Translations under genes and position numbers: made by a program | Source: a virus | Taxonomy: Duplodnaviria; Caudoviricetes | DNA length: 64,000 nucleotides | Virus record (IMG/VR): IMGVR_UViG_3300026549_000032 | Span: 96,001 to 160,000 of that record | Reading direction: 5' to 3' (one strand) | The notes under the pieces: model-generated | The model's input: only the letters and a program-made list of their open reading frames with translations | Told to the model about the DNA's origin: nothing | Databases searched by the model: none | Shown: in pieces, positions 15,190 to 51,669 of the stretch | Layout of the letters: every line of letters starts with the position of its first letter | How positions within the stretch are numbered: position 1 is the stretch's first letter

Positions 15190-15204
15190 ATATAAGGCTT
15201 TTCA

Positions 15205-15600
15205 CGGAAAACAGAGAGGACTATAAAGAAAATTACACCTCAGATTAGGTGCACAAAGGAGTGAGCGCAGCGATTCCCACATAGACAAGCAGTAACAAAA
15301 CCAGCACCCGCTCGGCCAAAGATTCTTTACGCTCCACTTCGCTTCTCCACGAAGCTCGTTCCACTAAACTTTGTCCTCGCGGGCCTCTGGGTTACGACCC
15401 CTCTTCGTCTCCGACAGCAAGGTCTCCGACTCATCGGCCGCTTCGCGGAAGGTCGAACCTTGAGGTGGTATTATGTATTATTTTTCGTAGCTGAGCACGA
15501 GCATAGCGAGGGCGAGGCAGAGAGGTGTAATTTCTATGACATTTTTTGGCAAAAACTTATAATAGTCTCTTTCGCATAAAAAATTACACCTTTAGGGGAC
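15205..15600. repeat. Non-coding origin-like region with three AAATTACACCT boxes
   Basis: AAATTACACCT at 15230-15240 (+), 15523-15533 (-) and 15581-15591 (+), flanking GC-rich hairpin-prone sequence. Confidence 0.6.
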
Positions 15601-15654
15601 TCCCTGGGGGAGGCTCCTGGGTCAAAAAAGAAAGGGACCGAAGTCCCCGAAGAA

Positions 15655-43547: not shown

Positions 43548-43879
43548 GATGGATTTGTGTAATATATGATTCTACTTTTCTCAAGTATACGTCGTTCCAA
43601 GAACCAAGAGGTTACTTTCCTAATAGCCAGATAGCTAAGTTCATCTAATCCGACAATGTAGTGGGGCGTGATTTCACCATGTTCGTTATCATAGTTAATC
43701 TGCTTCACCCCTAATACGATGGCCGATGCTATCTTGGGTAGTTTGTACGGGTCTATCTCTTTGACTTCGAGATCTCCAGGAAGTCCAAGTTCGTCGGAAC
43801 CCTCTATACAATCTTCCTTAGTCAAGAATACGTAAAACTTTGGTTTTAGAACATCCTCTTTAGTCCAAGCGATGTACAT
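43517..43879 (-). CDS. Hypothetical protein
   Basis: 120 aa in operon. Confidence 0.6.
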   Translation of the reverse strand: MYIAWTKEDVLKPKFYVFLTKEDCIEGSDELGLPGDLEVKEIDPYKLPKIASAIVLGVKQINYDNEHGEITPHYIVGLDELSYLAIRKVTSWFLERRILEKSRIIYYTNPSCKSRAKRMS

Positions 43880-45237
43880 TTCTTATTAATCCAGCTTTTC
43901 CAACCCAGACCATAAAACTCCTTCCTGACTTCTCGAATGAGATTGTCAACGAAATCCAGGTCAATCTCATCAGGGAGTTTAGAAGAGGCCATGGCGTCTT
44001 TCATTTCCTGATCGCGAGAGGTTAAGTACTTCATCAAGTCTTCATAGACGATATCGCCATTCCTAATCTGAAGCAACCAATCTCTGTCGATCCCTCGGCG
44101 GTCTATCTTAACACCTTCACCACGGGCAATCTCAATTCCCATGGCAAGGAGTCGGGCTGAGTGCATACCATTCTTCAGGTCATAGTGACCTTTCTTGGCC
44201 AGGTTGAAGCGCTCTTCATTGTGATGTTTGCTCCAGTCGTGATACTCCTTATACTGCTGACAATAGGTCGAATAAGCATCCTTGTTATAGGATACTAGGA
44301 GTACGGCTTTCTCACCTTTGGGGATAGAGCTTAAGCGCACCTGATTTGACGTATCCTTCTCATTGACAAGACCTTTATAACCAAAAGGCTGTTCTACATC
44401 ATCCCAGAATTTCTCTACCTCATCCCAACAGATAATACTTCCGTAGGGGTCGTAACCGAGGAGTGAATATCCTTTCTCCATTCCGTAATGGAACAAGGAC
44501 TTCAAGAAGGGGTTAGAGAAATCATCCTCTACCTTTTTATCGAAATCCTCGGTACAGAACTTCTTCAAGTCCTCAAAGCATCGAATATTGTATTCGAAAT
44601 AGAGGTGTGCTGGGAAGTCATAGTACATGTCGTAGCAGCAAATCATCTTATCAAGATTCACCAAGCCACAATACTTCTGGAGGAGGCCATGATTCTTGAG
44701 CCAGTTGACTACGGTATCAGAACCGCCTTCTTTCTCGTACATAATGAATTCCAAGACACTCTGTTGCGGACCCTCAATGGGATGAACAATTTTCTTTTTG
44801 AGGTTCTGTGCCTTCTCAATCTGAGTTTTTGCATAACCCATGAAAGATCCGAAACACTTCTTCGTTACGAACTGATCTCTTTTGGAGAGAATAATGTCCA
44901 TAACGGGATGCTTATAGAGGATCTTGTCTTCAGGGACATACAGTGACTCTAAGACGTTTGGATTTGACTTAATGAGAAGATCCATGAACTTCCTCAATGA
45001 GAACCACGAATCGTCGTTCGTCGCATCATGAACGTCCTCTGGGAATTCTAGGCCATGTCCGAGAAGAGTGTCATGGGGTTCTATGTAGACACCTCCATGG
45101 TCTTCATCCGATTCTGGCCGATCCAGTCCATACAACTTACTTCCTCTTACATACTCATACAAGAGAAGTCCTTTCTCTCTAAGATACTGAAAGTCAATCT
45201 TTCTCTTTAGGGGTTCCATTTTAATGATGTGAGTCAT
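43846..45237 (-). CDS. Pol-beta superfamily nucleotidyltransferase (YcgL/RlaP-like) with central insertion
   Basis: RGSKLYGL...SDED, KSNPNVLE, YDLKNGMHSARLL, LLQIRNG. Confidence 0.85.
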   Translation of the reverse strand: MTHIIKMEPLKRKIDFQYLREKGLLLYEYVRGSKLYGLDRPESDEDHGGVYIEPHDTLLGHGLEFPEDVHDATNDDSWFSLRKFMDLLIKSNPNVLESLYVPEDKILYKHPVMDIILSKRDQFVTKKCFGSFMGYAKTQIEKAQNLKKKIVHPIEGPQQSVLEFIMYEKEGGSDTVVNWLKNHGLLQKYCGLVNLDKMICCYDMYYDFPAHLYFEYNIRCFEDLKKFCTEDFDKKVEDDFSNPFLKSLFHYGMEKGYSLLGYDPYGSIICWDEVEKFWDDVEQPFGYKGLVNEKDTSNQVRLSSIPKGEKAVLLVSYNKDAYSTYCQQYKEYHDWSKHHNEERFNLAKKGHYDLKNGMHSARLLAMGIEIARGEGVKIDRRGIDRDWLLQIRNGDIVYEDLMKYLTSRDQEMKDAMASSKLPDEIDLDFVDNLIREVRKEFYGLGWKSWINKKCTSLGLKRMF

Positions 45238-49396: not shown

Positions 49397-49738
49397 TTAC
49401 TTGGTATCTAATATTAATTGCCATTCGGGATCTTCTGGACTACCAGTAAGCTCTTCTGCACTGGCTATTACTAGAGCACATGTTTGTACCTCCCACTTGT
49501 AGTACTTGTTGTATAGTTCGGTAATAGCTGCATCTAGTTCCGGAGTCATTGGTCCATATACATAGACCCAATCTGCATCAGTCCACCCTTCGTATTCATC
49601 TTCGTAAAATCCATCTTCACTTACGTAGACAAATCGATTTTCAGGGAACTTAGACTTTAGATCTTCCTGAATATGTTTCTTAATCCATCTCTTTGTCCAA
49701 AATCTATCGACCCAATGTGGTGTTCTTTTTCTTCCCAT
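49397..49738 (-). CDS. Hypothetical protein
   Basis: Probable ATG start MGRKRT. Confidence 0.55.
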   Translation of the reverse strand: MGRKRTPHWVDRFWTKRWIKKHIQEDLKSKFPENRFVYVSEDGFYEDEYEGWTDADWVYVYGPMTPELDAAITELYNKYYKWEVQTCALVIASAEELTGSPEDPEWQLILDTK

Positions 49739-49797
49739 CGTATGGCTAAAAAGTAATCCCGACCTCTGAGAGACCGGGACCACACAACACAAGTAGT

Positions 49798-50334
49798 TTA
49801 ATCCTCTTCCACAGGAGGCTGATCATCTGCCTTCGGAGCCTCCTCAGCGGCAGGGGCTGCATCAGATTTGGAGATTTCATCCAGTGCCTCGTTGAGCTTC
49901 GTTGAGAAGACGCCAGCAATGGTCTTGCTGTAATCAACGGCCTTCTTCAGACGGTTCTGGGCATCGATGGTCTGCTTGATCTCCTCGATCTTATCCGACT
50001 CCAGGAGAGCATCAACCTTCTCCTTCAGCTTGTTCAAGCTCTCATTCTCACCGAGGGCCTTCTTGAGGTCACTATAACCCCAGCGAAGCTTCTCCTTCAG
50101 GTCGGCGATAGTCTCTTCAGTTTTAGACTTCTTGCCGATCTCGTCCAGGATGTCAACAATCTGAGCATGAGAGAGATCCGGATTCTTGCGAATCGTGTCG
50201 ATGGCGATGTCCACCTTTTCCTCGTAGGTCTTCGGACGAAGATCATCTTTTACTTCGTTTACTAACTCGGTAGCTGCATCTTTTACTGCTGCTCCAATGC
50301 TGTTAAGTTTCTCGTTAATTGTTGTCCAATTCAT
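49798..50334 (-). CDS. Helical hypothetical protein
   Basis: 178 aa; CCTTATT at 50362-50368. Confidence 0.7.
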   Translation of the reverse strand: MNWTTINEKLNSIGAAVKDAATELVNEVKDDLRPKTYEEKVDIAIDTIRKNPDLSHAQIVDILDEIGKKSKTEETIADLKEKLRWGYSDLKKALGENESLNKLKEKVDALLESDKIEEIKQTIDAQNRLKKAVDYSKTIAGVFSTKLNEALDEISKSDAAPAAEEAPKADDQPPVEED

Positions 50335-50369
50335 AATTAATGGGTTTTAAAATTACTCATTAATAAGGA

Positions 50370-50525
50370 AAAGAAAGGGGAGGAGTAATTCCTCGCGCCG
50401 TGAGTCATCAGAGTCTTTAATGCAAAACAAGTCATTGATTGGCGGCGATACCCATTCTCTCTCCCCATAATAGAAGGCCGCCTTCGGAAAAATCTAAACT
50501 TATGGCAGGACAGCGACCTCCTTGT
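50370..50525 (-). ncRNA. Candidate small structured RNA (~155 nt)
   Basis: Follows a CCTTAA motif (50531-50536); GGCGGC/GCCGCC stem; ends in a hairpin plus pyrimidine tract. Confidence 0.3.
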
Positions 50526-50549
50526 CAATGTTAAGGGTTTTAGGGGAAG

Positions 50550-51290
50550 GAGGAAAAAAAATAAAACGTCAACTTTCCATTAACCTTAGTCAGTCACTAT
50601 GCAGCGGCTAACTTTAGTCATTGGTCTGTATCCGTGTTATGTCTTGGTTGTGGAACCTATTACTCCTTAGGATTCCTAGTGAGTAATGATTTACGTAGGT
50701 TTCTTTGATTTTCATCACCTACTACCACAGTAATTTGTAACTTAGTATACCTGATTCCAACAGGTTCCTCTTCAGAAGCAAGTTCCAAAGTGTGCTGGCC
50801 CATATACACCAATCAAGTTATCGTGTTTGGGGCACTTAAAGGTGCGACTAGACATCCCACCTCTCCTTCACACCATCAGTCTTAAACACTGCGCTGCTTT
50901 AAGTGCCTGTATCGTTATAAAAGTGTTTTAATGTTCTACTACCGTGTCGCCCTTGGGGAAGTAGGTTAGTAGGGCAACTGACTTTTGACATCCTACACCC
51001 TCGATAATAGAACATTAAAGGTTGTTTTTGTTGTGTTAATCGGTTTTAGAGTATCCTCTTTCGGGCGATTATTCTCGTCCTAGTGACTTCATCAATTTTC
51101 TGGGCTGTGATGTCATCACTAGAGGTTGCTCTAATTTAGTTTGTTGTTTTGTGTTATAATATAAATTTCAGGTTATGAAGTGTTGGTATATGTTCAGGGT
51201 CTATGCAGATCCTGTTCCGGCCTAGCCCTTCAAGTGAAAGAGCTCTCAATCACTAGAGGGGTTCTGCCAGACCATATAACAACATTAGTT
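50550..51290 (-). ncRNA. Candidate large structured ncRNA (~740 nt)
   Basis: No ORF of 60 aa or more; TCTTATA motif at 51297-51303; perfect stems 50831-50841/50897-50907, 50927-50938/51008-51019 and 51080-51086/51116-51122; A/C-rich linkers and terminal U-tract on the minus strand. Confidence 0.65.
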
Positions 51291-51306
51291 CACAGTTATA
51301 AGATTT

Positions 51307-51669
51307 TCAGGGGATTGGTCCAAGATAGTTGGTTGCATCGTGTATAGATACATGTTTTGTTCCTTTCTCTTTTGCAATCTTTAATCGCAGGAGGACACCA
51401 ATCACACGATCAGTGTCGTTCCCGTAATCCTGATCTATCTCACCTGTAAGGAAATCAAGCTTTTCCTTGACGTCCTCAATCATAAGATTTTCAGGGGCCT
51501 TCTCTGGGTAGAGGTCTGTATTGTAGGTTAGTCCACATACCGGACACTTGAATTGTCCAAAGGAGTAACCATCAAGATCCTCTAGCATCCCATGGAAGGT
51601 TTCTTTCCTAGTGATACTAATATTTGTCTCTCCCCCACAGATGGGGCATTCAACCTTCTTATTATTCAT
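51307..51669 (-). CDS. Zn-ribbon protein
   Basis: CPICG, CPVCG. Confidence 0.65.
   Translation of the reverse strand: MNNKKVECPICGGETNISITRKETFHGMLEDLDGYSFGQFKCPVCGLTYNTDLYPEKAPENLMIEDVKEKLDFLTGEIDQDYGNDTDRVIGVLLRLKIAKEKGTKHVSIHDATNYLGPIP

Follow-up and report, generated by a model that had tools for sequence, protein, structure and literature searches.

A predicted large structured non-coding RNA, made of six domains and A/C-rich linkers, in a narrow clade of huge phages

The DNA described here, a stretch of 64,000 nucleotides referred to throughout as the window, corresponds to bases 96001-160000 of an IMG/VR virus record of 218,381 bases. The record has a GC content of about 41%, and is about 60% complete according to CheckV. 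Identical or near-identical members of the cluster (P0001) of a 120-aa protein of the window are encoded also on contigs of 420-428 kb. Since proteins are shared with contigs of this size, the full phage genome probably measures about 420 kb. The source is probably a huge phage of the rumen or gut. The RNA locus is embedded in a long block of minus-strand genes, all transcribed in one direction. Upstream, in the minus sense, the block includes the genes for a virion structural protein (phrog_1383, 180 aa), a 393-aa protein (phrog_2087) and the 120-aa protein, a putative zinc-ribbon protein. Downstream, a gene encoding a 178-aa protein, the product of which starts with Met-Asn-Trp, and two small ORFs are followed by nucleotide-metabolism genes, encoding an IMPDH-like paralogue, a deoxyribosyltransferase-like protein and an RlaP-type nucleotidyltransferase. 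The gene for the RlaP-domain protein (463 aa, 43846-45237, minus strand) follows the RNA in this block at a distance of 5 kb; the RlaP domain is a polymerase-beta-type nucleotidyltransferase of RNA repair pathways. A 131-aa ORF (49397-49792) is found in the window and in one related locus (L017), and the stretch 49399-49747 is absent from another (at L016:2148-2153). Near-identical phages hence differ in whether they carry this stretch.

The 120-aa protein is peculiar to this group of phages. Just three clusters were found among 5.8 billion proteins, all in the same clade as the RNA. The protein changes rapidly, differing by 18% at the amino acid level, versus 10-12.5% at the fourfold sites of its own gene. 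The differences fall mostly in the N-terminal half, and the C-terminal 40 residues are nearly fixed. The AlphaFold model is of low confidence (pLDDT 51) and uninformative. One member of the P0001 cluster is an NCBI hypothetical protein from the 1.9-kb contig of a "Bacilli bacterium" MAG, which is either a weak hint to the host or a binning artefact.

The longest stretch left uncovered across the 218-kb record when ORFs of at least 70 aa are masked measures 972 nt (50335-51306), the runner-up being only 567 nt long. The earlier note had described it as the longest ORF-free stretch of the window, and the claim can be extended to the entire record. The gap stays closed under alternative genetic codes in which TAG, TGA or TAA is read as sense, and none of its ten short frames matches a Pfam or PHROGs family. 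A decayed gene was considered and rejected: the short frames carry no protein-family signal, and the constraint described below is too strong for a pseudogene. A 465-nt ORF-free stretch is found elsewhere in the window (15190-15654). Its GC content is raised (0.48), and it hosts three copies of GGTGTAATTT or its complement. The z-scores of its fold are only -1.6 and -0.6, and such weak values make a regulatory region more probable here than a structured RNA.

Genes of this phage are frequently preceded by the motif CCTTAY-N3-TG. The record contains 48 copies, 33 of which lie no more than 60 nt upstream of an ATG ORF on the same strand, a placement expected for about 5%. The usual distance between the first C and the ATG is about 13 nt, and a short hairpin and a T/C-rich run often come before the motif. 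A Shine-Dalgarno signal is almost missing upstream of genes. CCTTAY-N3-TG looks like a phage-specific promoter giving rise to transcripts with very short leaders, or none. The sequence TCTTATA, previously noticed as promoter-like at the right-hand edge of the gap, proved to be part of a one-mismatch copy of this genuine gene-start motif. By the usual 13-nt spacing from TCTTATAACTG, the RNA would start at about 51290, six bases ahead of the first structured domain. An exact 16-nt direct repeat, CCCCTGAAAATCTTAT, occurs at 51294-51309 and 51478-51493 on the minus strand, the two copies being 184 nt apart, one inside the 120-aa gene and one across its stop codon. N3-TG comes after each copy, the two are invariant in 5/5 sequences, and only about 0.01 such close repeats are expected. 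The repeat may represent a duplicated RNA start site. The TCTTATAACTG copy lacks both the first C and the upstream CT-rich tract, and because of this imperfect start motif the RNA could be the 3' part of the transcript of the upstream operon.

At the opposite boundary, the U-rich end proposed earlier corresponds to a T-run at 50555-50566, read in the minus sense. The T-run is followed by a CT-rich tract and CCTTAA, the usual terminator/start cassette of this genome. A consensus scan did not flag this 3' end as a canonical terminator, so that the transcript may continue to 50380. The predicted transcript may accordingly measure about 735 nt, or about 915 nt with read-through. The intervening second non-coding unit (Table 1) represents a small RNA or, alternatively, the leader of the 178-aa gene. 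A 63-aa TTG frame in this unit is broken by indels of 1, 2, 4 and 5 nt relative to L019, a related locus. The pairing of its first hairpin survives several changes, and the z-score of the fold is just -1.2. A 7-codon mini-frame (50334-50368, minus strand) lies between the start motif and the 178-aa gene, stops 2 nt before the ATG and is invariant across all relatives.

Table 1. Features of the RNA locus and of its surroundings, with positions in the window
Feature	Position	Strand	Observations
Predicted ncRNA, about 735 nt, six structured domains and linkers	50556..51290	minus	ORF-free; fold z = -4.7; threading
D1, Y-shaped, two hairpins, 11-bp closing helix	51165..51290	minus	z = -3.7 alone; helices 1-4
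Linker 1, 32 nt, 75% A+C, predicted unpaired, AACAC and AAnAAnAA stretch	51135..51166	minus	zero variable columns
D2, three-way junction, peripheral hairpins variable	51044..51136	minus	z = -4.9 alone
Linker 2, 26 nt, 88% A+C, predicted unpaired	51020..51045	minus	invariant
D3, 18-bp stem and two inner hairpins	50925..51021	minus	z = -4.1
D4, GGCAC...GUGCC stem, two hairpins and purine-rich junction inside	50825..50912	minus	z = -3.1; nearly invariant
D5, multi-hairpin junction, most conserved part	50646..50792	minus	z = -2.8
D6, long irregular hairpin, T-run 50555-50566, probable 3' end	50555..50650	minus	z = -3.5
Start/promoter-like motif TCTTATAACTG	51294..51304	minus	one mismatch to CCTTAY-N3-TG; invariant in 5/5 sequences
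Second non-coding unit, about 160 nt	50375..50536	minus	canonical terminator hairpin 50394-50380, just before the 178-aa gene
120-aa zinc-ribbon protein gene	51307..51669	minus	weak zinc-ribbon Pfam matches; adjoins the RNA in 4/4 related loci
CCTTAY-N3-TG, examples	36267, 41559, 45618, 49045, 50368, 55505	minus	
CCTTAY-N3-TG, examples	28186, 56861	plus	

Relatives were retrieved by using the 120-aa protein as bait. Four metagenome loci, from JGI and other contigs, were recovered in this way. Identity to the window is about 97-98% for two of them (L016 and L017), and about 89-90% for the other two (L018 and L019). The element is found in the same place, adjoining the 120-aa gene, in 4/4 loci. 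The locus occurs on many rumen contigs up to about 420 kb in length, and roughly 100 further contigs are known. Searches directed elsewhere were negative. INPHARED phages yielded zero matches in blastn, and exact-pattern scanning, twice of IMG/VR and once of GTDB genomes, brought up no real match. A sequence look-up among the other genomes surveyed likewise gave no look-alike of the RNA. The sole IMG/VR pattern match (L078) is a GC-rich coding region hit by chance. The 178-aa and 120-aa flanking proteins have no relatives in IMG/VR, the alignment of the latter found zero matches in GTDB genomes, and paralogues of the RNA are missing in the phage's own record. The 393-aa protein leads to more distant phages (36-44% identity, genomes of 350-412 kb, GC 31-34%), which have in common with the window only the gene pair formed by the 180-aa structural protein and the 393-aa protein. 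The RNA was detected in none of these distant phages by BLAST, nhmmer --max, or covariance models of D5 and D3 (best E = 1.4). As far as these searches can see, the element would be confined to one narrow phage clade.

The earlier note proposed that the gap encodes a large structured RNA, and listed several long helices. All the listed helices and motifs are in place, including the 7-bp helix 51080-86/51116-22 and ATTACTC/GAGTAAT nested inside AACCTA/TAGGTT. The 11-bp helix 50831-41/50897-907 can be extended to 16 nt with 88% complementarity, and the 12-bp helix 50927-38/51008-19 to 18 bp with 89%, the two exceptions being G.U pairs on the minus strand. The 7-nt complementarity between AAACACT and AGTGTTT, once regarded as a possible pseudoknot, exists and is invariant in 5/5 sequences, but such a match is about what is expected by chance. 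No pseudoknot or long-range pair is supported. A long-range helix between the 5' flank and the linker 3, suggested by the alignment fold, was discarded, since its 5' arm falls mostly outside the RNA, ahead of the predicted start. As a whole, the 751 bases 50550-51300 fold more stably than their shuffled versions on both strands (z = -4.7 minus, -3.7 plus), and each of the six domains, folded singly, has a z-score between -2.5 and -4.9.

The choice of the strand comes from the substitutions. The 69 substitutions that set L019 or L018 apart from the window were threaded onto the minimum free energy structure of the window sequence alone, and compared with 400 random placements of identical base changes. 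The test is not circular, since the structure was derived from the window sequence only. In the minus sense the threaded energy is -163 kcal/mol, versus -130 +/- 10 kcal/mol in the null (z = -3.3 and -3.4), and 0/400 random placements were as good; in the plus sense the real set fares no better than the random ones (z = -0.6 and -0.5). Preservation of the fold in the minus sense only points to selection acting at the RNA level on the minus strand. Wobble pairs had earlier been read as mixed evidence on the strand. The threading z-scores and the G.U pairs, each an A.C mismatch if read on the plus strand, settle the matter in favour of the minus strand.

A curated structure includes 203 pairs; together with RNAalifold it shows 98.5% of the cells paired. 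In the five sequences 6 pairs have changed on both sides, and 19 show one-sided changes compatible with wobble pairing. When partners were slid by 1-3 columns as a control, 0-2 double changes were counted. Seven of the predicted pairs are disrupted in one or more of the sequences. The five sequences fall into two subclades, and L018 and L019 are not independent, so that all this effectively amounts to one evolutionary comparison. The compensatory, strand-specific maintenance of pairs expected of a structured ncRNA gene is found in this single inter-clade comparison. Examples are scattered along the molecule. The pairing of the D2 closing helix is kept via a U-A to C-G change, and a different stem substitutes for the small D2 hairpin in L018 and L019. 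In the D3 stem, two U.G pairs would turn into A.C mismatches if the plus strand were folded; one pair has changed on both sides from G-C to A-U, two single changes are compatible with wobble pairing, and zero pairs are broken. Three double compensatory changes map in D6, where one pair is C-G, U.G or U-A in three lineages. In D4 competing pairings are indistinguishable because no column varies there. Additional natural variants of D5 were recovered from spurious ORF calls of 47-64 aa in public assemblies, and fall mostly in loops. The changes in this region hit two unpaired positions, a stem end (a 1-base deletion) and the spacer between D4 and D5, and one natural variant has a broken, uncompensated pair in D5. 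An analogous protein search with the spurious frame of D3 was empty. The proposed large structured ncRNA, running on the minus strand from about 51290 to about 50556, is upheld by strand-specific substitutions, compensatory pairs and constraint, while its tentative assignment to GOLLD or ROOL is not, as discussed below. A functional structured RNA on the minus strand is hence predicted with good confidence.

Rates of change vary widely along the RNA. At fourfold sites of the flanking genes, the window differs from L019 or L018 by 10-20% (10-12.5% in the 120-aa gene, 14% in the 393-aa gene relative to L019). Between subclades, D5 diverges by 2-2.7%, D4 by 3.4%, D1 by 5.6% and D3 by 7-9%, D6 and D2 by 19% and 22-23%, respectively. 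Linkers 1 and 2 have 0/58 variable columns in the five sequences; if neutral change amounts to 13% per site, such an outcome has a chance of about 3e-4. The alignment suggests a core fixed in sequence, made of D1, D3-D5 and the linkers, and two domains, D2 and D6, fixed only in shape. The genome is mosaic, and recent exchange, instead of selection, could account for some of the low divergence.

As had been remarked before, A/C-rich linkers separate the domains. The unpaired ones join D1 to D4, and the spacers beyond D4 are shorter. Linkers 1 and 2 are alike, being 78% identical over 18 nt. The pentamer AACAC occurs six times in the RNA versus 0.8-1.2 expected (P about 0.001). All six copies are conserved, two of them beside changed bases. 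Four reside in inter-domain linkers (51155-51151 in linker 1 and 51037-51033 in linker 2, among others), one in the D1 outer helix and one at the base of the D6 stem. ATAAC also occurs six times. CTAGTGA and TCACTAG are found twice each versus 0.05-0.09 expected, but CTAGTGA is not conserved in D1 of L018 and L019. GGA motifs of the type bound by CsrA are not enriched in the RNA, and a search of the phage's own record for sequences antisense to the linkers gave none above chance.

Few products of microbial genomes are so poorly understood as large phage RNAs of the GOLLD and ROOL type, and the number of catalogued families is small. The window was scanned with the 4227 models of Rfam 15, which include both, and 0 matches were obtained by cmscan at the gathering score; in particular, no tmRNA, RNase P, 6S, Y RNA, group I or II intron, OLE, HEARO, raiA or riboswitch was matched. 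A laxer scan of 50200-51600 (E <= 10, relaxed filters) returned snR191, a yeast snoRNA, on the plus strand, a chance match rejected on its score (17 bits versus a gathering score of 46 bits, E = 0.28). Neither GOLLD nor ROOL was matched in either scan, and membership in these classes, one of the two options of the earlier note, is not supported. The other option, a new class, is the reading left standing. By sequence and structure comparison the element is most likely a new family of large phage RNA, outside the catalogued ones.

The covariance model of ROOL (RF03087) describes a conserved multi-pseudoknot fold, and the 3' half of GOLLD is universally conserved. In contrast, the element described here is predicted to be a chain of separately folding domains on invariant A/C-rich linkers, not a pseudoknotted compact fold, and has been found so far in one narrow phage clade. 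ROOL and GOLLD are large phage RNAs of still-open function, often located beside tRNA islands and able to form RNA-only cages; ROOL was first found in rumen samples, and carries a disordered linker (PMC12286853). The element resembles both in size class (580-800+ nt), in being phage-encoded, and in having many helices and no coding capacity (PMC12286853). The tRNA-island setting was not found, as ARAGORN detected no tRNA gene either in the window or in the 218-kb record, itself about 60% complete. A different comparison can be drawn with bacterial RNA sponges. CrcZ and CrcY of Pseudomonas titrate Hfq/Crc by means of A-rich AAnAAnAA "CA" motifs, and CsrB and RsmZ titrate CsrA by GGA motifs. The likeness to CrcZ/CsrB-type sponges, a resemblance only, lies in repeated short conserved motifs, predicted to be unpaired, set between stable hairpins. 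Exact AAnAAnAA-type stretches are found in linkers 1 and 2, invariant and predicted to be unpaired; the other AACAC sites do not fit AAnAAnAA. The element is about twice the size of these sponges, its domains are large, mutually different and highly conserved, and GGA is not enriched as in CsrB/RsmZ. Sequence homology to CrcZ/CrcY or CsrB/RsmZ is missing. The 218-kb phage fragment encodes no Hfq, RRM or S1 proteins.

An ncRNA gene of about 735 nt (51290-50556, minus strand), the product of which would work in trans as a scaffold or decoy, is the best explanation as a whole, and one that we hold with moderate confidence. Other views have to be weighed. The RNA could be ornate and self-assembling, in the manner of GOLLD and ROOL, with a compact fold and RNA-only multimers (cages or dimers). 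According to this view, the invariant D4/D5 loops and the linkers would make tertiary or intermolecular contacts, rather than bind proteins. Size class, phage origin and rumen source all match those of ROOL/GOLLD, and ROOL too has a disordered linker (PMC12286853). The near invariance of the D4/D5 loops and the recurrence of several 7-8-nt motifs between domains, as CTAGTGA/TCACTAG, can be similarly read. Yet there is no match to either RNA in sequence or structure, and no supported pseudoknot or long-range pair; two invariant single-stranded linkers of 26-32 nt look like the string of a beaded chain, rather than part of a compact fold; tRNAs are absent from the 218-kb record, and CTAGTGA is not conserved in D1 of one subclade. 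An RNA of this sort is in our opinion unlikely. Domains that fold independently, with a short conserved motif recurring between them, and that change at widely differing paces, as distinct functional units would, could also be the parts of a precursor, cut at the AACAC linkers to release several small structured RNAs, one per domain. A nuclease reading AACAC is neither known nor detected, linker invariance over 26-32 nt goes far beyond the needs of a cleavage site, and two AACAC copies are misplaced, one being in the D1 outer helix region and one in the D6 stem. Processing of this kind seems quite improbable.

The locus might alternatively not be an independent gene. A long structured 3' UTR could stabilise or regulate the upstream operon (the 180-, 393- and 120-aa genes) or, along with the second unit as leader, control read-through into the 178-aa gene. 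There is indeed no gap in conservation past the stop codon of the 120-aa gene. The start motif, within a block transcribed in a single direction, is imperfect, and the RNA, unlike the next unit, does not end in a canonical terminator. We nevertheless give little credit to a role in cis, because 735 nt with six conserved domains and invariant linkers far exceed known stabilisers and attenuators, and because a copy of the start motif is placed exactly at the 5' boundary, a terminator/start cassette at the 3' boundary. Very improbable, and disfavoured, is the notion that no RNA gene exists at all, and the region is a DNA-level element, such as a replication origin, a packaging or a recombination site, or a decayed gene. 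Inverted repeats may form in DNA too, the plus strand folds with a z-score of -3.7, and the GC skew flips locally (50800-51400). Still, substitutions preserve pairing in the minus sense only, and the many G.U pairs become A.C on the plus strand; iterons and tandem repeats are missing, and the trend of the cumulative skew is unchanged. A decayed gene would be at odds with the lack of any detectable protein remnant, and with a constraint far above the pseudogene level.

How the ncRNA may work as a trans-acting scaffold or decoy can be outlined only tentatively, and we regard the mechanism as possible rather than probable. The RNA would act in trans, as a stable and modular scaffold or decoy. Several copies of one protein would most likely recognise, in a sequence-specific manner, the near-invariant core formed by D4, D5 and the linkers that do not vary. 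Two candidate partners may be envisaged, a host RNA chaperone binding single-stranded A-rich sites of the AAnAAnAA type, and the adjacent clade-specific zinc-ribbon protein. As the phage fragment has no Hfq, RRM or S1 proteins, and the zinc-ribbon model is uninformative, the protein partner is a guess. The fast-evolving D2 and D6, which keep their shape only, would provide spacers and a protective 3' terminus. In a more elaborate scheme, which we deem rather unlikely, the RNA would be a multi-site sponge or platform, the linkers capturing several copies of a host RNA chaperone or of a ribosome-associated protein, and D4/D5 recruiting a phage factor, as an example the zinc-ribbon protein.

The layout of domains and linkers is easily testable, and the linkers and the D4/D5 core are the obvious targets. 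The element would add to the few catalogued families an RNA of a different build, in which six domains are set on invariant single-stranded linkers. To our knowledge, no large phage RNA has been shown to titrate a cellular RNA-binding protein; should the sponge or scaffold hypothesis hold, the element would be a phage RNA doing so. If the RNA were truly a multi-site sponge or platform, the phage would rewire the post-transcriptional control of its host during infection.
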